Counted from the first letter of the stretch, positions 2,956 through 16,037 are shown. The stretch: DNA of 18,519 bases from SAR202 cluster bacterium (GCA_030743915.1 JASLRP010000520.1:1-18519), one strand, 5' to 3'. The notes: generated by a model not told the origin, from the letters alone. Numbers and translations: made by a program.

Positions 2956-3578
2956 GCGACGCAAGCCTTTGCGGGCTGGCGCCCAAAGCTATGGGTGTTG
3001 TCTCGCAGAAGTCTGGCAAAGTTAGCACACAATTTTGGTACGCATGTCTGAGCCTTTGTTGTTCGGCAGATTCTAAATAGCACAGGAGTTTTTGCCAGCA
3101 TTGCGGCGACCTTTCGTGGGCTGTGGCGGCATTGTGGTGTGCCGCCCGATCAGAACCGCCCGTTCGGTCCACCGCTTCGAACTTTGGAAAAGCGCTTAGT
3201 CTTACAACCTGATTAATACAGGCACGCCATAAAATCCGTTGAAATCTTGGCGCATTCAAGATATCTGCGTCAAGTTGGTCTGGATGAGGAACCAGCTTCA
3301 GATTTATGTCAGCCCGCCGAAATCAAGACTCCAATATACAACACGATAGTCGAATGACCTCGGCACGATCAGCAATTCTGCCTGGGAATGACCGGCGGTT
3401 ATTCACGTCGAGTCGTTTTGATGTTGTTGAAAATACGGCCAAATCGATGATCAACATTACAAATATCCGCGCAACGAAAAAACCGACGCAGCATCCGACA
3501 GCAAGGAGTCGGTAACGCTCAACGATCAGGAAACACATTCAGAACTCAATCTAGCCCCTGAAACGGAGGAGTTGTTGT

Positions 3579-3695
3579 ATGTCATTGAAGACAATATCAG
3601 CCTTTAGACACTGGAAGATCATCGGCGTTTTACTTTTGTTATTGACGATTGGAGTGTTTGGCGTGGAGTCCTCGGGCGTGCCTGTTGCGCATGCA
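3579..3695 (+). other. Predicted Sec signal peptide of the giant protein (aa 1-39)
   Basis: A basic n-region (K, R, H, K), then a run of Leu/Ile/Val, then AHA followed by DD. Confidence 0.6.
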
Positions 3696-6600
3696 GACGA
3701 TCCGACTCCAAATGATATTCCTCACGATCCTCCGCCCATGGCGAGCGCCATTATTGACAATGGCACCGTTCACATTGGCGTTTTAGATCAAGGTCATCTG
3801 GGAGTCGGAGTGCCTTATAGCAGCGACCCTGCCAGTATAGGCGCAGTGGGCCTTCGCTACGTCCCCATACCCGCTTCTGCGTCGACCGAACCGGGCTGTA
3901 TCTGTGAAGGATGGGGCGTTGCAGACGCTGGCACAGGCCAGAACGCTCACGCCGACGTCGCTGTCGGCGGAGTCTCCGGAATGACCGTCGACTCGTTTAC
4001 TTCCTCAGGTGTGTCACCATCCGGGGCGGTTGGCTCCGTCGGCACCCAGGCAGAATCGGTGGTGACAGCCTTTGGTCGGTTGAGGGTGACTCATGATTTC
4101 CATCCAACGCCTCTGACACCCAACCTCTATGAGGTGGATGTCACCATCGAGAATATCTCCACAACTGACGTCACAGACCTACGTTACACGCGCACTATGG
4201 ACTGGGACATCTATCCAACATACTTTGACGAGTACGTGACCATTCAGGGTGTCGGCAGCGCAGCCAACCTGCTCTATGCCGACGACAACGGGTTCCAGGA
4301 CCCGAACCCGCTGCTGACACGATCAGCCAGCAACGTCGGCAACATGGTTGACAACGGGCCAGACGACCACGGCGCTCATTTCGACTTTGGATTCGGCCCG
4401 CTTCCCGCTGGTGGAACACAGACGTTCAGAATCTACTACGGCGCTGCTCCAACTGAAGCTGGCGCGAATGCCGCGCTGACAGCCGTCGGCGCCGAGGCAT
4501 ACTCTTTTGGTCAGTCCAATGGGGGCCAAGTCACCGGTTCTCCAGTAACTTTCATCTTCGCATTCTCTGGCGTTGGCGGTTCGGTGTTGATCCCGCCCGA
4601 TCTGTTGCTGGAGCCCACTGCGGACACCAACAATGTCGGCGAGACTCACACGCTAACCGCCACTTTGACCGACGACTCCGGCAACCCCGTTTCCGGCGTC
4701 ACAGTGACCTTCGAGGTCGTCGGCGGCCCCAACACCGGAACGCTTGGAACAGCGGTCACTAACTCCAGTGGTGTAGCGACCATTAGTTACTCGTCCACCG
4801 TGACAGGGACCGACGCCATCGTTGCCAGCTTCGTGGATGGAGATAGCAATACTCAGAACTCCAACGGAGTCACCAAGGAATGGGTAACCCCGCCCAACGT
4901 GGCACCAACCGTATCCACCCCCAACTCCAGCGTCACGGTTGACGAAGGCGACACTGCCAACAATAACGGCAGTTTCTCCGATCCCGACGCCGGCGACAGC
5001 GTGACCATCTCCGCCTCTGTGGGCACAGTCACGCAATCAGGCTCTCAATCCGGCACGTGGAGCTGGTCTTTCAACTCCACAGACGGACCCGCTGAAAGCC
5101 AGACGGTGACCATCACAGCCACTGACGGCTCCAGCGCCATAGGGACAACAACATTCGGCCTGACGGTCAACAACGTGGCGCCCAACATCGATAAGGGCGT
5201 GGTCGATCTCAATACATGGACAGCCGAGAACATAAGCTCAGGCTCCGGCGTTTGGACCGTCGACGGCAGCGGCAATAGCGTGTTCCAGAGCGTCAACGGC
5301 AACCCGACGTTCTTCTACAGTGACTTCAGCTCTCTGGGCAGCCCGCTTCAAGGGACCATCAGAGTTGAGACCACAAGCGACGATGACTTTATCGGTTTCG
5401 CCATCGGGTTCAACCCCGGCGACACTGCCAACCCCAGCGCCGACTACCTGCTGGTTGACTGGAAACAGTATAATCAGCCAGACGCATGGGGCTATGGCGC
5501 TCAAGGCCTTGCCGTATCCAGAGTGAATGGAGTCGGAAGTAACCCAGATTTCTGGTCGCACAGTGGCGCGCTGACCGAGCTTGCCAGGGGCATCACCCTA
5601 GGGAACACCGGTTGGGGCGATTACCAGATCAACGAATTCCAGTTCGACTTCACGCCGACGAGACTTCGCGTTTTCGTCAACGGAACACTGGAACTGGACG
5701 TCACGCCTACCGGCCCGAACTTCAGCGACGGCAGGTTCGCATTCTTCAACTTCTCTCAGAGCAGCGTGCGCTACAGCGCGATACAGTCCGACTCAATTGC
5801 AGGAGTCGAAGCATCGCCTGTTTCGTTCAGCAAGAACTTTACAGACCCGGGTATTCCAGACACCCACACCGCCACCATTAATTGGGGCGACTCAGGCACA
5901 GGCGGAGAAACAGTGACTTCGCCGTCCGGCAGCACTCCGGGCACCGTCTCCGGGACCCATACCTACGCCGACAACGGCACATATACGGTCACAGTCACCG
6001 TCTGCGACAGCGACCTAGATTGCGACAGCGACACGTTCACTGCCACGATTGCCAACGTCGATCCCACAGTGGATGCTAATGGCCCTTACTCGGTTAACGA
6101 GGGATCCTCGGTGACACTTAACGCGACAGGTTTCGACGTGGCCGGCGCTGCCGACCCGCTGACCTACGCGTGGGACCTGGACAACAACGGGTCTTTCGAG
6201 ACTCCGGGCCAGAGCGCACCTTTCAATGGCATCGACGGCCCGTCCACCCACACGGTCAACGTGCAGGTCAATGACGGCGATGGTGGGACTGCAGTTGACT
6301 CCGCCACGGTCACCGTCAACAACCTGGACCCGGTCGTCACCGCGACTGGCGACACCATCAACGAGGGTGATACTGCGACGGTTAGCGGGACCATCTCCGA
6401 CCCCGGAACGCCTGACTCCTTCACGGTTGTCATCGACTGGGGCGGGAGTGAAGGTTCCGATACTCTGAGTCTTCCGGCCGGTTCGACTTCGTACTCGGCG
6501 ACTCACGTCTACGACGACGACGATCCCACCGCCACTCTGTCGGACAACTACGGAATCTCCGTGACGGTAACTGACGACGACGGCGGCATTGGCTCCGCCT

Positions 6601-9600
6601 CTGCGACCGTCACAGTCAACAACGTGGACCCGGTCATCGAATCGGGCGTGGTCGATCTCAACTCCTGGACCGTCGAAAACTCCAGCCCTGGTGCAGGAGT
6701 CTGGACCGTCGATGGCAGCGGCAACAGCGTATTCCAGAGTGTCAACGGCAACCCGACATTCTTCTACAGCGACTTCAATGCCCTGGGAAGCCCCCTTGAG
6801 GGCGCTATCGCGGTTGAGACTGGCAGCGATGACGACTACATAGGCTTCGCCATAGGCTTCGAGCCAGGCGACACTTCAAACCCCAGCGCTGACTTCCTGC
6901 TTGTGGACTGGAAACAGGGCGACCAGAGCGGCGCTCTGGCCGGTCTTGCGGTTTCGCGGGTTACCGGTGTGCCCACCGGCAGTGATTACTGGACACACTC
7001 AGGGGCCATCACCGAGCTTGCCAGGGGCATCACCCTGGGAAGCACTGGATGGGCCAATTATGCGTCCAACCAGTTCCTGTTCGAATTCTCACCCACGCGC
7101 CTTCGGGTATTCGTCAACGGCACTCTCGAACTGGACGTCACGCCTACCGGCCCGAACTTCAGCGATGGAAGGTTCGCCTTCTACAACTATTCGCAGTATT
7201 ACGTCCGCTACAGTGCCATACAATCCGACTCCATAAGCGGAAACGAAGCATCGCCTGTTTCCTTCACCAAGAACTTCACTGACGTCGGCATTCCCGACAC
7301 ACACACCGCCACCATTCTTTGGGGCGACACCAGTTCCAGCGCTGGCACAATCACTGAGCCCTCAGGCAGCACGCCTGGGACAGTCTCTGGGACCCATACC
7401 TACGCCGACAACGGCACGTACACCGTCACAGTCACAGTGTGTGATGACGACGGAGGTTGTGACAGCGACACGTTCACTGCCACGATTGCCAACGTCGATC
7501 CCACAGTGGATGCTAATGGCCCTTACTCGGTTAACGAGGGATCCTCGGTGACACTTAACGCGACAGGTTTCGACGTGGCCGGCCCCGCCGACCCGCTGAC
7601 CTACGCGTGGGACCTGGACAACAACGGTTCCTTCGAGACGCCAGGACAAAGCGTGCCATTCAACGGCATCGATGGCCCATCCACCCACACGGTGAATGTG
7701 CAGGTCAATGACGGCGACGGCGGCATCGCAGTGGACACCACCACGGTCACCGTCAACAATGTGGATCCGACGATTGTCACCACTTTCCAGGTGGCGCCGA
7801 TCCCTGAAGCGTCAGTATCAACCTCCGGTAACCTGGTAGCGCAGGCCACCGATCCTGCCGGCTCCAACGACCCACTCGCATTCGACTTCGACTGTGACAA
7901 CAACGGCTCGTACGAGACCCCGTCCAACCCCAGCACATCCGCTGCCGACTGCTACTTCGACGACAACGGTAGCTACACTGTGGGCGTCAGAGTGACTGAC
8001 GGAGACGGCGGACAGGCCATCGGGTCGGTCATCGCGGTCGTCACTAACGTTTCGCCGACCGCGTTCATACCCAACGTCGGCCCGGTGGACGAAGGCTCGC
8101 CTGCAGTGATCACCTTCGAAGCCGAGTTCGACCCGTCGGTCGCTGACACCACAGCCGGGTTCCACTACTCCGTTGCCTGCGACGGTCTGGCGAGTTCGCT
8201 GGCCGGGTCGTATGCGGCAGCAGGAACATCGGACAGCGTGAACTGCGTCTACGGCGACAACGGCACATACACCGTCATGGGGCGCATCTTCGACAAAGAC
8301 GATGGCTCCAACGACTACAGCGCCACTGTCACCGTCGTCAACGTGGACCCGGTCGTCACCGCGACTGGCGACACCATTGACGAGGCAGGCACGGCAACAG
8401 TCAGCGGGACGATCACGGACCCTGGATTCCTGGACACCTTCACGGTGGTCATTGACTGGGGTCCCGGCGAAGGCTCGACGACTCTGAGCCTTGGAGCGGG
8501 CGCGACGACCTACTCGGCATCCCATCAGTACATTGATGACGACCCGACCGCCACCCTGTCGGACGACTACGGAATCTCCGTGACCGTCACCGACGACGAT
8601 GGCGGCGTGGGCACAGCTTCGACAGTAGTCACCGTCAACAACGTGGACCCCGAGCTAACACTCGACCTGACAGGCTCACTGCCGTTCGTCGGTGGAGACG
8701 CCTTCATCGGTCGCAAGGGCGTCGAGCAAACTCACTTTGCAGACGCCACAGACGTTGGCGCCGACGATCTGACCTTCGATTGGACCTTCGCTCCGGATCC
8801 GACATTAGACCCGGAAACCTACCTCAATGGTGGATCAATCCCGATGTCGGCCTCGGATTCGGCTTCAGTGACTTTCGCAGCGCCGGGCATCTACACCGTC
8901 GAAGTGGACGTGACTGACGATGACGGCGGTTCCGCCGACGCTCTCAGTCAGACCAAGATCGTCACCGACGACTGCGACTGCGCCAAGTCCAAGGGCTTCT
9001 GGAAGCATCAGTTCAAGGCTTCGACCACTGGCAAGGGCAAACAGCACATCGACGACGCATCTCTGGAAATCTACCTGGACATCGTCGAATACGTCTCCAG
9101 TGTCTTCAGTGAGGATGTCGCTCTCGCTGGCATCATCGAAGCGCACAACGTCTTCGATCCACCCAAGTCCAACAACGGCGGAGGAACAGGCACCGGCTCC
9201 GGCAGCGGATCTGGCTCTGGCTCCAATGAAGCCACCAACCCGTCGACTACCGGATCCAAGAAAAAGAAGAAGGGCGGAGACTCCGGTTCCGGCTCTGACT
9301 CGGACACAGGATCAGGCTCTGACAAGAAGCTGGAAAAGAAGAAGCAGGACGCTCTCCAGCAGACTCTGGCCGCATGGCTCAACTTCGCCAAGGGCGGCAT
9401 CGACTGGGACGAGGACATCACCATAGACGGCGGAACGGGAACAGGATCCAACAGTGGCTCGGGCACAGGCTCCAAGCCTGCCACGCCTCCTGTGGTCATG
9501 GACTTCAGCGATCTGATCGCTGAGGTTGAGGCCATCCTGAACAACCCGCTATCCACCGCTGACGACTTCGAGCATGCAAAGGACCTGGCTGAGTCCGTCA

Positions 9601-9779
9601 ACAAGCACGACAAGGACAACCCTGACTGCGACACCGGCTCCGGCTCCAATAGCGGTTCCGGTTCTGGCAGTGGATCGGGAACGGGTTCCAAGTCGAGCAA
9701 GGGCGGAGACGACTCCGGCTCTGGCACAGGCTCCAAGTCTTCCAAGGACAACAAGAAGAACAAGAGGAACAGGAAATAG
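3579..9779 (+). CDS. Giant secreted cell-surface/adhesin-like protein (2066 aa). Domain order: Sec signal peptide, bacterial Ig-like (Big) domain, 2x [jellyroll/LamG-like module + PKD domains], further PKD-like domains, a Cys-containing C-terminal module, then a Gly/Ser-linker polybasic tail
   Basis: GGAGG lies 9 nt upstream of ATG 3579. The N-terminus 'MSLKTISAFRHWKIIGVLLLLLTIGVFGVESSGVPVAHA|DD' has a hydrophobic core and an AHA cleavage motif. PKD signatures include 'INWGDSG...GTHTYADNGTYTVTVTVCDSD' and 'YAWDLDNNGSFETPG...HTVNVQVNDGDGG'. A Big-like segment reads 'GETHTLTATLTDDSGNPVSGVTVTFEVVGG...ATISYSS'. The tail is rich in D, T, S, G and N, with no internal stops over 6.2 kb. Confidence 0.9.
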   Translation: MSLKTISAFRHWKIIGVLLLLLTIGVFGVESSGVPVAHADDPTPNDIPHDPPPMASAIIDNGTVHIGVLDQGHLGVGVPYSSDPASIGAVGLRYVPIPASASTEPGCICEGWGVADAGTGQNAHADVAVGGVSGMTVDSFTSSGVSPSGAVGSVGTQAESVVTAFGRLRVTHDFHPTPLTPNLYEVDVTIENISTTDVTDLRYTRTMDWDIYPTYFDEYVTIQGVGSAANLLYADDNGFQDPNPLLTRSASNVGNMVDNGPDDHGAHFDFGFGPLPAGGTQTFRIYYGAAPTEAGANAALTAVGAEAYSFGQSNGGQVTGSPVTFIFAFSGVGGSVLIPPDLLLEPTADTNNVGETHTLTATLTDDSGNPVSGVTVTFEVVGGPNTGTLGTAVTNSSGVATISYSSTVTGTDAIVASFVDGDSNTQNSNGVTKEWVTPPNVAPTVSTPNSSVTVDEGDTANNNGSFSDPDAGDSVTISASVGTVTQSGSQSGTWSWSFNSTDGPAESQTVTITATDGSSAIGTTTFGLTVNNVAPNIDKGVVDLNTWTAENISSGSGVWTVDGSGNSVFQSVNGNPTFFYSDFSSLGSPLQGTIRVETTSDDDFIGFAIGFNPGDTANPSADYLLVDWKQYNQPDAWGYGAQGLAVSRVNGVGSNPDFWSHSGALTELARGITLGNTGWGDYQINEFQFDFTPTRLRVFVNGTLELDVTPTGPNFSDGRFAFFNFSQSSVRYSAIQSDSIAGVEASPVSFSKNFTDPGIPDTHTATINWGDSGTGGETVTSPSGSTPGTVSGTHTYADNGTYTVTVTVCDSDLDCDSDTFTATIANVDPTVDANGPYSVNEGSSVTLNATGFDVAGAADPLTYAWDLDNNGSFETPGQSAPFNGIDGPSTHTVNVQVNDGDGGTAVDSATVTVNNLDPVVTATGDTINEGDTATVSGTISDPGTPDSFTVVIDWGGSEGSDTLSLPAGSTSYSATHVYDDDDPTATLSDNYGISVTVTDDDGGIGSASATVTVNNVDPVIESGVVDLNSWTVENSSPGAGVWTVDGSGNSVFQSVNGNPTFFYSDFNALGSPLEGAIAVETGSDDDYIGFAIGFEPGDTSNPSADFLLVDWKQGDQSGALAGLAVSRVTGVPTGSDYWTHSGAITELARGITLGSTGWANYASNQFLFEFSPTRLRVFVNGTLELDVTPTGPNFSDGRFAFYNYSQYYVRYSAIQSDSISGNEASPVSFTKNFTDVGIPDTHTATILWGDTSSSAGTITEPSGSTPGTVSGTHTYADNGTYTVTVTVCDDDGGCDSDTFTATIANVDPTVDANGPYSVNEGSSVTLNATGFDVAGPADPLTYAWDLDNNGSFETPGQSVPFNGIDGPSTHTVNVQVNDGDGGIAVDTTTVTVNNVDPTIVTTFQVAPIPEASVSTSGNLVAQATDPAGSNDPLAFDFDCDNNGSYETPSNPSTSAADCYFDDNGSYTVGVRVTDGDGGQAIGSVIAVVTNVSPTAFIPNVGPVDEGSPAVITFEAEFDPSVADTTAGFHYSVACDGLASSLAGSYAAAGTSDSVNCVYGDNGTYTVMGRIFDKDDGSNDYSATVTVVNVDPVVTATGDTIDEAGTATVSGTITDPGFLDTFTVVIDWGPGEGSTTLSLGAGATTYSASHQYIDDDPTATLSDDYGISVTVTDDDGGVGTASTVVTVNNVDPELTLDLTGSLPFVGGDAFIGRKGVEQTHFADATDVGADDLTFDWTFAPDPTLDPETYLNGGSIPMSASDSASVTFAAPGIYTVEVDVTDDDGGSADALSQTKIVTDDCDCAKSKGFWKHQFKASTTGKGKQHIDDASLEIYLDIVEYVSSVFSEDVALAGIIEAHNVFDPPKSNNGGGTGTGSGSGSGSGSNEATNPSTTGSKKKKKGGDSGSGSDSDTGSGSDKKLEKKKQDALQQTLAAWLNFAKGGIDWDEDITIDGGTGTGSNSGSGTGSKPATPPVVMDFSDLIAEVEAILNNPLSTADDFEHAKDLAESVNKHDKDNPDCDTGSGSNSGSGSGSGSGTGSKSSKGGDDSGSGTGSKSSKDNKKNKRNRK
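5166..6614 (+). repeat. Intragenic tandem repeat unit A (~1.45 kb: jellyroll module + 2 PKD + 1 PKD-like 'VVTATGDT' module)
   Basis: Begins 'NNVAPNIDKGVVDLNTW'. Re-aligns with unit B at an offset of 1449 nt (first part) or 1437 nt (later part). The 140 nt at 6061-6200 differ from 7498-7637 at only 4 positions. Confidence 0.85.
6615..7760 (+). repeat. Intragenic tandem repeat unit B (jellyroll module + 2 PKD), which lacks the terminal PKD-like module of unit A
   Basis: Begins 'NNVDPVIESGVVDLNSW'. The PKD portion is ~97% identical to unit A at the nucleotide level, and the jellyroll portion roughly 80-85% identical. Confidence 0.85.
8344..8650 (+). repeat. Third, dispersed copy of the PKD-like 'NVDPVVTATGDTI(N/D)E...TVVIDWG...ISVTVTDDDGG' module, which also occurs at 6324-6614
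   Basis: GTGGACCCGGTCGTCACCGCGACTGGCGACACCAT is shared between 6327 and 8343, and the protein alignment is clear. Confidence 0.8.
9170..9760 (+). repeat. Coding microsatellite-like (GGC/TCC/GGA/TCT)n tracts encoding (GSGSGT)n linkers interleaved with K-rich and short helical segments
   Basis: At least five runs are visible, at 9191-9226, 9280-9324, 9430-9470, 9631-9690 and 9711-9734. The C-terminal tail reads '...SKDNKKNKRNRK*'. Confidence 0.8.
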
Positions 9780-9813
9780 TTCGCCCTGACAATCGGATAG
9801 GCATTTAGCGGGA

Positions 9814-9850
9814 GGGCCGGTCACAAATTGTGACCGGCCCTCTCTTTCTA
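9814..9850 (+). terminator. Rho-independent terminator of the giant gene
   Basis: GGGCCGGTCACA (9814-9825), loop AAT, TGTGACCGGCCC (9829-9840): a 12-bp perfect GC-rich stem, followed by TCTCTTTCTAT. Confidence 0.75.
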
Positions 9851-10926: not shown

Positions 10927-10967
10927 CCGCCATTCTGAATCCGCAGATGAAGAATCTGGCCGTCAGT
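10927..10967. repeat. Copy 2 of the 41-bp direct repeat (CCGCCATTCTGAATCCGCAGATGAAGAATCTGGCCGTCAGT), 22 nt after the OCD stop codon
   Basis: 36/41 identical to 599-639. Its 3' end forms the 5' arm of the hairpin at 10958-10988. Confidence 0.75.
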
Positions 10968-10988
10968 TACCGTGGTTCACTGACGGCC
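10958..10988. other. Perfect 10-bp stem hairpin (GGCCGTCAGT, 11-nt loop, ACTGACGGCC) with no T-tract; it is built partly from repeat copy 2
   Basis: The inverted repeat was read directly from the sequence. Confidence 0.6.
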
Positions 10989-11123: not shown

Positions 11124-12200
11124 TTAGTTGAGGTTCATTACGGTGTCGATGATGTCAGGCATGACTCGCTCGATCACTACCGTGCCGCCGTCCTCAGGTC
11201 GGACTTCCAGGTCCCACTTCACATCGCCAATCACCGGGTAGGTGTTCGACAGAGCTGTGAGGCTCACGGTCAGTTCCGCTTTCTCGCCAGCTTCCAGCAG
11301 GTCGTCGCTGTCGTTGGCTCCGATGAAGGTCTTGGACCAGTACACGTCCTTGATGACCTGGTTCTTGTCCGTGTAGGTCAGGATCATGGTGTGGCCACTG
11401 TCGGAGTCGGAGTTGCCATCGGCGTCGGCATCAGAAGGCTCAGAGACGTCGATGGGCTCGCCTTCCAGTGTGTTAGTGATGGTGACCAGCAGAGAGGTCG
11501 CCTGGCCCTGCGCAACCACTTCGTCCACGTTCAGAGTTATGGCGCCATCGTCTGTTACCAGATCAATGCCCACGCACTTGACCGCAGTCATGTCGGAGTT
11601 ATCAGTGATTGCCAGCGTGACCAGTTTCCATGTGTTGGCGACCAGCACAGGCAGGTCGATGTCTTCTAATGAGCTTCCGCAGGCCGCTGTGTCGTCGAGT
11701 CGTAGCTGCAGATCGCCTGCGGCGGTGGTCGTGCCGTACTTGACCCAGAGACTCACCGAGTCGATGCTGGACAGGTCCACGGTGGCGGACAGGTCCGAGT
11801 ATGCGACCAGCCCGGTGGTGAAGTCGGCATCAATGGCCATGTCGGCGCTGCCGGTGCCTTGTTTCTTGTCGGTTGTGTCTGCTGTCACAGTCGTGCTGGC
11901 AGAGCCGGTCCATGCGGAGTCGGCCAGGGAGAGGGTCTTGTTGCTGACGCCGTTGGCGACAACGCCACCCTTGAGTGCCAGGGAGCTTCTCGCGCCCTTC
12001 AGGCCTGCGTGGATCGTCTCTTTGCCGCGCTCGGCAGAGAAGATGCCCGTGGACAGGACCGTGAAGGCGAACACGGACGCTACGACCACGAACGCAATCA
12101 GGATGATGGCGGTCTCAAGACCGGTGACTCCCCGTTCCTGCTTTAGTGTCCTGCTCGCGTCAGCCAGAGGCTGGAAGCGGAACCCTTTCAAAAGTTTCAT
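11124..12200 (-). CDS. Class-III signal peptide protein with an archaellin-like (archaeal flagellin N-terminal) / type IV pilin-like N-terminus and a ~300-aa Ser/Thr/Asp-rich C-terminal domain (358 aa from ATG 12198-12200)
   Basis: 'MKLLKGFRFQPLADASRTLKQERG|VTGLETAIILIAFVVVASVFAFTVLSTGIFSAERGKE' carries a charged leader ending in G, Glu at +5, and a ~22-aa hydrophobic helix. It resembles the archaellin consensus (...GIGTLIVFIAMVLVAAVAA..VLINTSGFLQQKA..GKE..). GGAGGAGGG lies 8 nt upstream of this ATG. The 71-codon extension to 12413 in the track has no RBS and is Cys- and Pro-rich junk. Confidence 0.65.
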   Translation of the reverse strand: MKLLKGFRFQPLADASRTLKQERGVTGLETAIILIAFVVVASVFAFTVLSTGIFSAERGKETIHAGLKGARSSLALKGGVVANGVSNKTLSLADSAWTGSASTTVTADTTDKKQGTGSADMAIDADFTTGLVAYSDLSATVDLSSIDSVSLWVKYGTTTAAGDLQLRLDDTAACGSSLEDIDLPVLVANTWKLVTLAITDNSDMTAVKCVGIDLVTDDGAITLNVDEVVAQGQATSLLVTITNTLEGEPIDVSEPSDADADGNSDSDSGHTMILTYTDKNQVIKDVYWSKTFIGANDSDDLLEAGEKAELTVSLTALSNTYPVIGDVKWDLEVRPEDGGTVVIERVMPDIIDTVMNLN

Positions 12201-12288
12201 TGTGTGTGCCCTCCTCCGCGGATTCGTTTCCCTTTGAGATTCATTGACTTGAAATCTACGATACCGCTGTGGAGGAAAAATCAACATT

Positions 12289-12348
12289 GGGCAAGCACAC
12301 AAAGTGAAGGAAGGCAGGGACGCAATATTGATTGCGGGCAAGCACACA
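12289..12348. promoter_or_regulatory. Candidate regulatory architecture upstream of the pilin-like gene: direct repeat GGGCAAGCACACA (12289-12301 and 12336-12348) flanking the inverted repeat CGCAAT-N4-ATTGCG (12321-12336)
   Basis: The exact 13-nt direct repeat is spaced 47 nt apart, with a palindrome between the copies, 90-150 nt upstream of ATG 12200. Confidence 0.35.
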
Positions 12349-12599
12349 CCAACATTCACACGGAAGATGCTCATATCCGCCGGCCCCATCAGCGCTAGCG
12401 CCCAGGTAATCACACGGATGCAATTTGGAGGGCCACACGTGCCGAAGGTGTCGGCTAGGTGTCAGTTTTGGTGTAGATTAGAGCAGAAACGTCAATTGCT
12501 GACGCATGTACTGTAGCCGACTCTGGCCTAACGATTCCGAAAAACCAGTTATGAAGTTGTCCATATTTCTGACAATCTCCGTACATGGTCCATACTATG

Positions 12600-15500
12600 C
12601 TATCCACCCCAGTCAGGGAACATGTCATGGGCCGGGTTGTTGGAGATGTTTTGTTGTTCGGAACCATCGGCATTCATCACGTATATTTCGCGATTGCCGT
12701 CTCTGTCAGTCCAAAAAGTAATCATCGTGCCATCTGGGGACCAGTCAGGAGACGAATCTCTTCCTGAGTGATTTGTGAGATTCATTTGGGCCGAGCCGTC
12801 AACGTTCATCACGTAGATTTCTTCGTTGCCGTCTCGATCTGACTTGAAAGCGACCTTGCTCCCATCAGGTGAGAAGACGGGTTCGTCATCAATCCGCGAA
12901 CTGAACGTAATCCGAGTGGGGTTTGATCCATCGGCATTCATGATCCAAATCTGACCATCTGGAATGCCTCTATTCGACAAGTAAGCGATTTTCGCACCGT
13001 CAGGTGACCAACTAGGAACAGAGTCAACGCTGGAATTGTTTGTTAAGTTGGTCTCTCCAGATCCATCTGCGTTTATCACGTAGATTTCATTGTTGCGAGT
13101 AAATGCAACCTTAGAGCAGTCTGGTGACCATGCAGCGTGATCGGCCCCTACAGAACTGGCAACTAACAATGTCTTGTCTGAGCTGTCGGCGTTGATCGTA
13201 TATAGGCCTGTGCCTGGAACGGTAGATGAGTAGACAATTTTCTGGCTACTCCAGCACCAATCAGGTTGTGTGTTGGATGCAATTAGGTTAGTAACGTTGA
13301 CGACGCTAGAGCCGTCAGGGCTCATAGTGAAGATTTCATGGTTTGAAGTTCTGATTGACTGAAACGCGATTTTGCTAGCAGGTGCGGATTCAGTTGTAGG
13401 GCAAGTACTTGTTTGCGATGTTCCACCATCATTGAATGCTACCAACCTGTAACAGTACTGCGTCGACGCATTCAACCCTGCGTCCGTGTATGTCGTTGTG
13501 TTTGCAGGCAACGCCTTTGTCTGTGAGAACGTCCCGCTTGTGCCTATCGCCCTCTCTAGCTTGTATCCGTCTTCGTTTGTCGCATTGTCCGTCCATGTCA
13601 GGTTGATGCTGTCTGATGTGCTCACGCCCAAGAAATTCGTCGCTGCCGCTGGAATCGGTATCGGTGTTGGAGTGGGTGTCGATGCAGGTTCCGTCGTCGG
13701 ACACGTGCTTACTTCAGATGTCCCGCCATCGTTAAACGCGACCAATTTATAGCAATACTGGGTCGATGGTTCCAGGCTAGAATCCGTGTAGGTTGTCGTG
13801 TTCACCGACAATGCTTTTATCTGTGAGAATGTTCCACTTTGGCCGGTCGCCCTCTCAAGTTTGTATCCATCTTCGTTTGTCGCGTTATCTGTCCAGGTCA
13901 GATTGATGCTGTTTGATGTGCTCACGCCCAAGAAATTGGTCGCCGCCGCCGGCGTCGGGATCGGTGTGTGAGTTGGAGTGGGTCCGGGTTCCGTAGTTGG
14001 ACATGTGTTTACTTCAGATGTTCCACCATCATTGAACGCCACCAATTTATAGCAATACTGAGTCGATTCGTTTAATCCAGTGTCAGTGTAGGTGGTCGTG
14101 TCCGCCGACAACGCAGTTGTAGTGATCAGAGAGAACGATCCGCTTTGACCGACTGCTCTCTCAATTTTGTACCCGTCTTCATTTGTCGCGTTGTCCGTCC
14201 AAGTCAAATTGATACTGTCTGAAGTGCTTACCCCCAAGAAGTTGGTCGCAGCCGACGGCGTCGGGATCGGTGTATGAGTTGGAGTGAGTGTAATAGTTGG
14301 TGTCGGAGTGTCAGTAGGCACAACCGTTGTTCCGACAGGGATAGTCGTCGGTGTAGGCATAACAGTAGGAGTCAACGTCGGAGTGAGTGTAGGCGTGGGC
14401 GTCGTCGTGACCAATCTCGGGCTAGCCACAAATATGTTATCTGTTTCGTTGCTCTCGGCAATGCGATTGCCAACGTCCACGATCAATTCGATTGTGTGTG
14501 GTCCTGCTGAGATTATGGATATCTCCTCGTTAATCATACTGGCGATGCCATTGGAATCCAGACTGTTCACTGGGAAGGTTACAATAACCTCGCCATCAAG
14601 AGATATTCCGACGAGGAAAGGCTGCGTTATTGCCTGGTGAGACTCGTTCTTGACAGCCCAATGCACGAATATCTGAGACCCAAATACGAACTGGCTGCCA
14701 CCCGGTGGTGGTGTGTCCTGGAATGAACTGGGCCGATCGGAGACGACCAAAGCCGCATCCCATCGGTCTGGTTTGAACGGTATCAAGTTGATTGGCGCTG
14801 GCGTGGGAGTGACTGACGGCGTTTCGCCGGGCCGCAATGTCGCAGTCGGGCTGGGAGTTGGCGACGGCGTGTTGGTGATAATCGGCGCCAAAGTCGGCGT
14901 GACCGTAGGTGTCTGGGTCACAGTCGGAGTCACGGTCGGTGTTGTAGTCAAGGTCGCGGTCACGGTCGGTGTGACGGTGACCGTTCTTGTCGGAGTTACA
15001 GTTGATGTTATTGTCGGTGTTGTAGTCAAGGTCGGGGTCACGCTGGGCGTTACGAGAGCCGTTGGTGTCAGAGTAAAGGTCGCGGCTTCTATAGGCGTCG
15101 GAGACAAAGTCGCGGTGGGCGTGGGTGTTGGCGTTGCTTCGTTTCTCGAAGTCAGCGCGAAGACGCTGAGACTTCCCACAAGAGCGCTAGCTGTTTTGTT
15201 ATCAGGACCAACGGAGGTCTTCAACGCTACCCACTTCTGGGTATCAGTTTCAAAATGTTGAATCACCAGATTTGCGGTGTAACTTCCCGAATTGCGAATA
15301 CCTGCTTCATTGAGTGTAATTGTCACGGTGATGTTCCTCTCGAATTCGTAGTTTCCACCTTCAGGTTGCTGTGCGCTCACAACCTGAAGGTCAAATGCTT
15401 TCCCGAGAATGGAAAATCCAGAAAGAAAGTTAGCATAGTTCTGGGGTTCGACAGGCCGATACCAGAGGGTGATTGGTTCACCGGTCGAACCAACTGGCAC

Positions 15501-16037
15501 ATCTATTGTCACATTCCCATCTGGAGAGTTGAGTTGCGCTGCATTACCCGGTGTGACCTCCACGTATGGCACTGCAATAGGATCAGTTGGGTCGTCATCC
15601 GGAGGAAGAATGTCGAAGGCTACGAGCACTGCAACAACGACTCCGGCTATTGTGGCAACCGCAGCAACCACTTGCAGTAGCCTATACCATCCAGGACGAT
15701 GCCCACGCTCTTGAATGGGAACATCCAACACCTGACGATGGGCCACCATGCCCTCTTTTTCGACGAAAAACTGTTCTCGGCCTGACGTTCCCCGATAGTT
15801 CCCCTGCGGCCTGAACGCAAGCGTGATTTCGTAGTATTCCTCGGTCTCGTTATCTTGGACCGTCTCGAAAGCCATACGGACGCCTGAGAACTCACGACCG
15901 TAATCGCCAGGCGTTTCGGCTGCAGTTTGCATGGCGATGACGCGGGCCTGATCCAGCCCGATGTAGCCTATCGACTCACCCTCGTCGGTGAATTCGAAAG
16001 AATCGTCTTTGGTCTCGTCAGTATCGTCGCGTTCCAT
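12600..16037 (-). CDS. Large N-terminally membrane-anchored (type II) surface protein (1145 aa): ~120-aa acidic cytoplasmic domain, one TM helix, PT-rich linker, CARDB-like domain, PT-rich linker, three tandem FN3-like repeats, and a C-terminal TolB-like PD40 beta-propeller
   Basis: TM region '...QERGHRPGWYRLLQVVAAVATIAGVVVAVLVAFDILPPDDDP' has basic residues before it and acidic residues after it. CARDB-like segment: 'FVHWAVKNESHQ...ISLDGEVI...GPHTIELIVDVGNRIAESNETDN'. The FN3 unit 'ATNFLGVSTS.SINLTWTDNATNEDGYK.ERA.G.SG.FS......TTTYTD..L..STQYCY.LVAFNDGGTS' occurs three times. PD40 repeats: 'SPDGSKVAF.SDRDGN.EIYVMN.DGS....LT'. No strong SD sequence precedes ATG 16035-16037, so the exact start is uncertain. 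Confidence 0.85.
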   Translation of the reverse strand: MERDDTDETKDDSFEFTDEGESIGYIGLDQARVIAMQTAAETPGDYGREFSGVRMAFETVQDNETEEYYEITLAFRPQGNYRGTSGREQFFVEKEGMVAHRQVLDVPIQERGHRPGWYRLLQVVAAVATIAGVVVAVLVAFDILPPDDDPTDPIAVPYVEVTPGNAAQLNSPDGNVTIDVPVGSTGEPITLWYRPVEPQNYANFLSGFSILGKAFDLQVVSAQQPEGGNYEFERNITVTITLNEAGIRNSGSYTANLVIQHFETDTQKWVALKTSVGPDNKTASALVGSLSVFALTSRNEATPTPTPTATLSPTPIEAATFTLTPTALVTPSVTPTLTTTPTITSTVTPTRTVTVTPTVTATLTTTPTVTPTVTQTPTVTPTLAPIITNTPSPTPSPTATLRPGETPSVTPTPAPINLIPFKPDRWDAALVVSDRPSSFQDTPPPGGSQFVFGSQIFVHWAVKNESHQAITQPFLVGISLDGEVIVTFPVNSLDSNGIASMINEEISIISAGPHTIELIVDVGNRIAESNETDNIFVASPRLVTTTPTPTLTPTLTPTVMPTPTTIPVGTTVVPTDTPTPTITLTPTHTPIPTPSAATNFLGVSTSDSINLTWTDNATNEDGYKIERAVGQSGSFSLITTTALSADTTTYTDTGLNESTQYCYKLVAFNDGGTSEVNTCPTTEPGPTPTHTPIPTPAAATNFLGVSTSNSINLTWTDNATNEDGYKLERATGQSGTFSQIKALSVNTTTYTDSSLEPSTQYCYKLVAFNDGGTSEVSTCPTTEPASTPTPTPIPIPAAATNFLGVSTSDSINLTWTDNATNEDGYKLERAIGTSGTFSQTKALPANTTTYTDAGLNASTQYCYRLVAFNDGGTSQTSTCPTTESAPASKIAFQSIRTSNHEIFTMSPDGSSVVNVTNLIASNTQPDWCWSSQKIVYSSTVPGTGLYTINADSSDKTLLVASSVGADHAAWSPDCSKVAFTRNNEIYVINADGSGETNLTNNSSVDSVPSWSPDGAKIAYLSNRGIPDGQIWIMNADGSNPTRITFSSRIDDEPVFSPDGSKVAFKSDRDGNEEIYVMNVDGSAQMNLTNHSGRDSSPDWSPDGTMITFWTDRDGNREIYVMNADGSEQQNISNNPAHDMFPDWGG
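13400..14290 (-). repeat. 3 x ~303-bp tandem repeats (FN3-like domains) inside the 1145-aa gene
   Basis: Plus-strand units begin near 13436, 13738 and 14041 (CCAA(C/T)(C/T)TGTAACAGTACTG... / CCAATTTATAGCAATACTG...). Nucleotide identity between units is about 80-85%. Confidence 0.8.
14800..15140 (-). repeat. Low-complexity coding repeat encoding a ~115-aa (T-P-T-V/L)n linker; a shorter one lies at ~14280-14440
   Basis: On the + strand the sequence is a monotonous GGTGT(C/G)GG(A/C)GT series, and the protein reads 'TPTPTPTATLSPTP...TVTPTVTATLTTTPTVTPTVTQTPTVTPT'. Confidence 0.8.

Follow-up and report, generated by a model that had tools for sequence, protein, structure and literature searches.

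Architecture of the SAR202 Repeat Gene

The 18,519-bp contig analyzed here over its full length (GCA_030743915.1, JASLRP010000520.1:1-18519; hereafter the window) belongs to a metagenome-assembled genome (MAG) of the SAR202 cluster (Chloroflexota), an abundant uncultured deep-ocean lineage. On its plus strand (3579-9779) it carries an open reading frame (ORF) for a predicted secreted repeat protein of 2066 amino acids (aa; MDP6455175.1). Within this ORF, two in-frame collinear blocks of domains, 78.3% identical overall at the nucleotide level, share a sharply bounded stretch of 167 nucleotides (nt) that is almost identical, a pattern that probably reflects a short gene conversion between the copies of an old duplication. 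An exact look-up of the full 2066-aa sequence returned no record, and MDP6455175.1 was reached through the 90% cluster of P0001.

The N-terminal half of the protein consists of a hydrophobic signal-like segment, seen in the translation, a region of about 300 aa without a Pfam match (3696-4598, aa 40-340), a Big_1 and a Big_9 domain, the first repeat block (unit A), and a PKD-like module (c1). The C-terminal half comprises the second block (unit B), two further PKD-like modules (X1 and X2), a second copy of module c (c2), another PKD domain, and a cysteine motif with a Gly/Ser/Lys-rich C-terminus. This terminal region (8976-9776, aa ~1800-2066) contains a DCDCAKSKGFWKHQF motif (DCDC...GFWKHQF), followed by Gly/Ser-rich and Lys-rich low-complexity sequence; it is common to the homologue P0004, yet no Pfam family matched it. 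Domain searches of the whole protein found no match to LPXTG, PEP-CTERM, or other anchor families, and no serine-rich repeats are present in it. A terminator-like hairpin with a 16-bp stem lies 30 nt past the stop codon (9810-9844, plus strand).

Both jellyroll modules of the repeat blocks exceed the Pfam gathering cutoff for TSP_C (PF05735, 25.6 bits), with 36.4 and 36.5 bits, and a profile of six jellyroll homologues matches thrombospondin-1 (1ux6, E 2.7e-12) and COMP (3fby, E 4e-10). By these scores the jellyroll is a genuine thrombospondin C-terminal (L-type lectin-like) domain. AlphaFold gave a model of moderate quality for unit A (pLDDT 65 overall, 35-70 in the jellyroll), and its fold matches were for that reason counted as weak support; the top match, the ligand-binding region of staphylococcal SraP (4m00), has a Foldseek E of 4e-12 with low TM-scores (0.25-0.32). 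Read from its domains, the protein is a putative secreted carbohydrate-binding or adhesive surface protein. TSP_C-like jellyrolls are also very common in environmental bacteria as stand-alone proteins of about 240-290 aa (P0152-P0250), many of which carry a PEP-CTERM sorting domain (PF07589).

Unit A (5187-6329) is composed of a TSP_C-like jellyroll (5187-5789, aa 537-737; PF05735 E 6e-9) and two PKD domains, PKDa (5790-6056; Pfam PKD_4 E 1.8e-7) and PKDb (6057-6329; Pfam PKD_4 E 4.8e-7), and is followed by c1 (6330-6635), the paralogue of c2. Unit B (6636-7766) has the same order of jellyroll (6636-7226, aa 1020-1216; PF05735 E 5.7e-9), PKDa (7227-7493; best PKD_4 stretch at aa 1222-1302), and PKDb (7494-7766). 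Only after unit B do X1 and X2 occur (7767-8348), with X1 distantly PKDb-like (43-46% at the aa level), and c2 comes next (8349-8651). All of these modules lie on the plus strand.

An earlier note on this DNA had described a tandem duplication of about 1.45 kb whose units realign at an offset of 1437-1449 nt. The repeat is real and the offsets agree with ours: ungapped 300-nt blocks match at 78% with a spacing of 1449 (5163-5462 vs 6612-6911) and at 79% with a spacing of 1437 (5547-5846 vs 6984-7283). This shift in spacing is due to a 12-nt indel at 5487-5498 (plus strand), by which unit A has four extra codons (WGYG) relative to B. The arrangement is nevertheless not a clean tandem: its layout is A-c1-B-X1-X2-c2, not a strict head-to-tail repetition of units of identical composition. 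Module c, previously thought to have a third copy, has two, which repeat at an offset of 2019 (6302-6601 vs 8321-8620, 76% nt identity) and which are 79% identical in aa and 75% in nt, with a silent divergence (pS) of 0.56. The difference between the c offset and the block offset (2019 - 1437) equals the 582 nt of X1-X2. Just one weak pair of inverted repeats was found in 5000-8800.

A Near-Identical Tract Across the PKDa/PKDb Junction

We compared units A and B codon by codon, with 399 codons aligned and a single indel of four codons. Identity is 75% in the jellyroll, 77% in PKDa outside the tract, and 83% in PKDb outside the tract (90% for the whole of PKDb). The tract itself (6024-6190 in unit A, 7461-7627 in unit B, plus strand) runs from the last PKDa strand through the ANVDP linker into PKDb, of which it takes in the first half, and its copies are 98.8% identical, with two differences in 167 nt. 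An exact run of 123 nt (6024-6146) is followed by one differing codon and then by 41 more identical bases. Both differences (6147 and 6149) fall into codon 857, which is GCT (Ala) in unit A and CCC (Pro, 7584-7586) in unit B. The limits of the tract are sharp, mismatches starting again at 6023 and 6191, and it does not match any one domain but spans the PKDa/PKDb junction. An earlier count of 4/140 differing nt between 6061-6200 and 7498-7637 proved exact, but the figure of about 97% that it had been taken to represent for the PKD parts applies to 6024-6190 and not to the remainder of either PKD domain. The 80-85% previously given for the jellyroll was likewise too high, the measured values being 75% in the codon alignment or 78-79% in the ungapped blocks.

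This near-identity exceeds what the rest of the repeat would produce by chance. The longest exact run of 123 nt compares with a permutation maximum of 63 (20,000 permutations), and 53 unchanged silent codons stand in a row vs a maximum of 45 in 100,000 permutations. Changed silent codons number 1/54 in the tract and 98/250 outside it (Fisher p = 1.7e-9). Units A and B also share shorter exact runs (38, 29, and 26 nt), which are within the permutation range and give no sign of further tracts. No part of the unit is better conserved as protein than the segment specified by the tract. In the flanks, stretches whose peptides are the same in A and B nonetheless differ at many silent sites. Because silent pS is 0.025-0.05 in the tract vs 0.50-0.61 in the flanks, the cause of homogenization lies at the DNA level and not in protein constraint. 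Silent sites are homogenized in the tract only, and gene conversion acting on part of the repeat, which the earlier note had proposed as an alternative to unequal crossing-over, is the best reading of this pattern.

The outgroups all have Ala at the differing codon, so the Pro of unit B is derived; it either escaped conversion, through patchy repair or because there were two tracts, or arose afterwards. A diversity-generating retroelement pair was considered as a source of the pattern and rejected, since the mismatches are G/C and T/C, not adenine-specific, and the scanned neighboring genes contain no reverse transcriptase.

Age of the Duplication

Outside the tract, silent-site divergence between the units is near saturation (dS 0.8-1.3). 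In the jellyroll, pS is 0.61 and dS 1.28, with a nonsilent divergence (pN) of 0.14; in PKDa pS is 0.50, dS 0.83, and pN 0.14; and in the rest of PKDb pS is 0.55-0.56 and dS 1.03, with a pN of 0.03-0.05 for PKDb. Divergence along the unit, tract included, is strongly nonuniform, which preserves the mosaic reading that a uniform profile would have removed. Near-saturated silent sites mean that the A/B duplication is old, not recent as had been supposed, and all parts outside the tract are of the same old age. Their similar divergence agrees with one duplication event that took in c along with the rest of the block. The low pN across unit parts (0.03-0.14) indicates that both copies are under purifying selection (dN/dS about 0.1).

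A neighbor-joining tree of the jellyrolls places the duplication relative to lineage splits. Unit A groups with L007, an A-type fragment from a related strain with 92.5% nt identity to unit A (100% bootstrap), this pair groups with unit B (94%), and the single-unit homologues from other lineages, L008, L009, and L010, fall outside, so that the A and B jellyrolls are closer to each other than to any of these. As L007 branches after the A/B split, the duplication predates the separation from the L007 strain, and by this tree it is specific to the lineage of the SAR202 gene. The conversion, by contrast, is very young (dS about 0.03-0.05) vs both the duplication and the L007 split (pS 0.24-0.33).

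Other Contigs and Copy Number

Four other contigs, two from Joint Genome Institute (JGI) metagenomes and two from NCBI MAGs, were compared with the window, and each is 99.99-100% identical to it in the parts covered. Two of them, L001 (window 3495-8045) and L002 (361-8113), reproduce units A, c1, and B with both tract copies. L003 (2779-7537) contains the A tract copy and part of the B copy, in the middle of which it stops, and L004 (3065-4909 and 4956-7583, plus 4 nt) likewise contains the A tract copy and part of the B copy. L004 stops 4 nt past the exact repeat of unit B, and these nt are the A-type GCTG, which could represent either a mis-step in the assembly graph or a variant with a continuous tract.

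No copy-number variation was seen among the window and these four contigs over the stretches covered (three reach into unit B and one ends within unit B), in a sampling that is small and nearly clonal; a hot spot of length and copy-number change, as earlier envisaged, is not apparent in this set. Unit number differs only between distant lineages, with one unit in L008, L009, and L010 and two in L012 (an alphaproteobacterial MAG) and L015 (an acidobacterial MAG). The jellyrolls of L012 and L015 pair within each gene (100% bootstrap), reflecting either independent duplications or concerted evolution. The warning that the repeat endangers assembly was borne out in part: two contigs do end within the B copy of the tract, at its 123-nt exact repeat, but collapse of the whole 1.4-kb unit is unlikely at 78% identity. 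The hazard is real but local, confined to the 123-nt exact repeat.

Probable Recurrent Exchange of PKD Modules in Relatives

Comparable mosaics are found in other members of the TSP_C-PKD protein family. In the alphaproteobacterial MAG, L012:6768-9198 holds a clean 1203-nt tandem duplication of TSP_C-PKD-PKD-like units (6768-7989 vs 7971-9198). Between its two units the jellyroll is diverged (pS 0.49-0.74) and PKDa homogenized (pS 0.12-0.22), with an exact run of 98 nt. This is the mosaic that the earlier note had described, in another phylum. A second case involves L008 (~1400-1700) and L009 (~1440-1740), the loci of proteins P0004 and P0007, which are separate Chloroflexota genes from different metagenomes. 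Over about 100 codons from PKDa up to the ANVDP linker, equivalent to aa 732-829 of the window protein, they are 90-97% identical (95% in PKDa only), vs 68-77% elsewhere, which indicates exchange of a single module between genes or genomes.

A third case comes from a lineage related to that of the window, in which L005 and L006 preserve a 420-nt relic of a unit A-type copy. By its informative sites, L005 sides with A at 5980-6023 (9 vs 3), switches to B at 6191-6290 (14 vs 3), and returns to A at 6291-6329 (6 vs 0), placing a B-type patch directly 3' of the tract. Tract and flanks also disagree phylogenetically in this one short relic: L005 is A-like in both outer flanks and has 20 differences from the tract common to A and B.

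Exchange of PKD modules therefore looks recurrent in this family, as witnessed by the L005 patch and the L012 mosaic. A plausible reason for the recurrence is that conserved peptides leave long runs of nucleotide identity. The three homogenized segments (A/B, L012, and L008/L009) overlap one junction, which is suggestive of a hot spot but, with three tracts, not statistically compelling. A broader proposal draws on these three segments together with three inactivating lesions of the SAR202 gene (described below): the end of PKDa and the linker would form a preferred module-exchange site across phyla, in a gene under fluctuating selection (e.g., from phage or grazers) where recombination would supply selected surface variation. 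This seems to us rather unlikely.

Alternative Explanations and a Proposed History

Several other processes might leave two diverged units with one near-identical segment. All available sequences are short-read contigs, and de Bruijn graph simplification or a chimeric join could in principle have made the tract near-identical or produced the two-unit layout; L003 and L004 both stop within the B copy of the exact repeat, and the last 4 nt of L004 continue as in unit A. However, the window, L001, and L002 read identically across the two tract copies, with L003 and L004 in agreement up to where they stop, and the matching contigs come from both JGI metagenomes and NCBI MAGs. Units with flanks about 22% diverged cannot be collapsed into one, nor can assembly software make up a 167-nt stretch of identity where the sequence on either side is diverged; graph simplification erases a few single-nucleotide polymorphisms only within a near-identical stretch, and the GCT/CCC difference survived. 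Comparable mosaics also occur in unrelated assemblies (L012; L008/L009), and an artifact is accordingly very unlikely in our judgment. Still lower is the probability that a third paralogous PKD module elsewhere in the genome converted both copies. Such a donor would fit the observation that L005 is somewhat farther from the tract than from the flanking A- and B-type segments, as well as the between-gene exchange seen in L008/L009, yet the 18.5-kb window contains no third copy of the tract, and a single conversion is simpler than two separate ones that happen to share their end points.

The remaining two explanations are contradicted by silent sites. A recent duplication, as the earlier note proposed, might have been followed by fast divergence of the jellyroll, the PKD part remaining unchanged, and pN is indeed higher in the jellyroll and PKDa than in PKDb. 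But pS is high everywhere except in the 167-nt tract, including the rest of PKDa (0.50) and of PKDb (0.55), c1 and c2 are equally diverged, and L007 split from unit A after A and B had separated; fast protein evolution cannot raise pS, and the silent-site profile refutes this proposal, to which we give scarcely any credence. Nucleotide-level constraint on the tract, whether from codon bias, an embedded RNA or DNA element, or an antisense gene, would be in keeping with the strong protein conservation there and with the independent homogenized segments of L012 and L008/L009 at the same junction. Against it, the two orthologues examined (L008 and L009) differ from the tract at 65-69% of silent sites (pS 0.65-0.69), as they do in the flanks (0.54-0.78), and equally conserved flanking peptides carry many silent differences. 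An embedded RNA element was rejected because shuffled sequence folds just as well as the tract (z = 0.08) and Rfam gave no match anywhere in the window. Constraint of this kind is hardly tenable, and is to our minds the weakest of the alternatives.

An old, lineage-specific, in-frame duplication followed by short intragenic gene conversion across the PKDa/PKDb junction is in our view the best explanation, and a probable one. Long ago, a block of domains (TSP_C-like jellyroll, PKDa, PKDb ... c) would have been duplicated in frame, and its two copies would have diverged under purifying selection, with X1-X2 either gained by insertion in the second copy or lost from the first by deletion. At a far later time, nonreciprocal recombination would have overwritten about 123-167 nt of one block with the sequence of the other, in an event presumably older than every sampled copy of this SAR202 population. 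Long runs of identity serve as starting places for homology-dependent recombination. The conversion may have proceeded by RecA-type strand invasion and subsequent heteroduplex repair, and may favor as starting points the places where a strongly conserved protein sequence keeps nucleotide identity unbroken for longest.

Assignment of donor and recipient would require an unconverted B-type orthologue, and none was found in a protein search with the unit B-specific part or in metagenome contigs: the protein search gave distant TSP_C proteins only, many of them of 250-280 aa and bearing a PEP-CTERM domain, without B-type fragments from close strains, and the contig scan gave no close relatives (best match 57%). 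Several points weigh against conversion as we propose it. L005 differs from the tract by 12% vs about 7% in the flanks, a difference that is not significant and gives no lead on polarity. All sequences are short-read assemblies, and the five contigs (the window and L001-L004) may not be independent read sets; the A-type GCTG beyond the exact repeat in L004 marks the assembly graph as ambiguous at that place. The two in-tract differences, confined to one codon, fit two adjacent patches or patchy repair just as well as a single tract with mutation afterwards, and both copies might owe the tract to an unseen third paralogue in another part of the genome.

Gene Disruption and Neighboring Genes

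The SAR202 gene shows what may be three different inactivating lesions in natural populations, two insertion sequence (IS) insertions and one 46-nt frameshift deletion. In a related strain, an IS1380-type element (DDE_Tnp_1_4 transposase) is inserted in PKDa of unit A at window ~5980-5983, with the left junction taken from L007:907-995 and the right one from L005:457-708 and L006. Its termini have a 13-nt inverted match (GTATTTCCCAGAT), and CATAC occurs at both junctions, which looks like a 5-bp target duplication. In L005:709-1299 and in L006, homology to the gene ends at window 6399 and an amidohydrolase-like gene follows, with the same junctions in the two assemblies.

The second insertion is seen in L001:4552-5701 (metagenome 3300035250), where sequence past window 8045, at the X1/X2 boundary, leads into an rve-family integrase/transposase gene (HTH_32 + rve, 328 aa) on the opposite strand. 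This junction would be an IS insertion truncating the protein at 1371 aa, or possibly a chimeric contig. At L004:1840-1845, 46 nt corresponding to window 4910-4955 in the Big_9 region are missing between two CCAAC microhomologies, which splits the gene into ORFs of 457 aa and 885 aa; the deletion is either an error of assembly or the third disabling lesion of this gene, independent of the others, in environmental data.

Two neighboring ORFs lie on the minus strand. One of 1145 aa (12600-16037) encodes PD40 beta-propeller repeats, three fn3 domains, and CARDB. Its fn3 part contains a 300-nt tandem repeat (13417-14286, 2.9 copies, 79% matches), and a 78-nt repeat lies at 14899-15042, making it a putative second repeat-rich surface protein whose intragenic repeats are old. 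The other ORF, of 429 aa (11124-12413), is flanked by the genes of the two large repeat proteins and, in this Chloroflexota genome, matches the archaeal flagellin family PF01917 (E 2.8e-12). In addition, a 44-nt sequence occurs at 599-642 and 10927-10970 with 86% identity, each time just 3' of a gene. The two genes, a luciferase-like monooxygenase fragment and a member of the ornithine cyclodeaminase family, are unrelated, and the sequence may be an intergenic repeat element.

Comparison with Known Systems and Implications

Partial homogenization of repeat-rich surface proteins has precedents. In Leptospira, the identical 5' parts of ligA and ligB have been ascribed to gene conversion (PMC7821625). 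As in the SAR202 gene, these are repeat-rich proteins of the immunoglobulin-like (Ig-like) type in which one segment is near-identical between paralogues and the rest diverged. The Lig partners, however, are two tandem genes with a long identical stretch of several domains and upstream DNA, and are built of Big_2 domains, whereas the SAR202 partners are two PKD/TSP_C blocks in one ORF with a patch of 167 nt. Repeated coding modules of spidroins and yeast FLO adhesins evolve in concert by recombination, giving chimeric or mosaic modules (PMC3933166, PMC3512402). Those proteins have many near-identical repeats and frequent copy-number change, unlike the SAR202 gene with its two old, 78% identical repeats and one patch. 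In Apilactobacillus kunkeei, certain gene variants of its giant extracellular proteins have dN and dS values so low that recent homogenization by homologous recombination was proposed (PMC12863079). These too are very large bacterial surface proteins built by duplication, but there homogenization acts between strains and on whole genes, and no recent conversion between paralogues within a genome was seen (PMC12863079).

With SraP, a secreted adhesin of L-lectin and cadherin-like modules, the SAR202 protein has in common a lectin-type beta-sandwich joined to Ig-like modules. It differs in that its jellyroll belongs by sequence to the thrombospondin C-terminal and not to the legume-lectin family, and in lacking serine-rich repeats and LPXTG. 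In the library searched, no paper links SAR202 with PKD-domain proteins, and the few mentions of SAR202 together with adhesins are all in passing. The case adds an example to a known process, the ordinary evolution of repeat-rich surface proteins, and does not stand for a new type of system.

In practice the consequences are modest. In annotation and MAG building, contig breaks at the 123-nt exact repeat are to be expected rather than collapse of the whole unit, and trees made from the domains of such proteins will mislead where they cross the PKDa/PKDb junction. For the biology of SAR202, retention of both jellyroll copies under purifying selection is consistent with two useful, possibly differently specific, putative binding modules, and the recurrent exchange of PKD modules together with recurrent gene disruption hints at turnover of this predicted surface protein.

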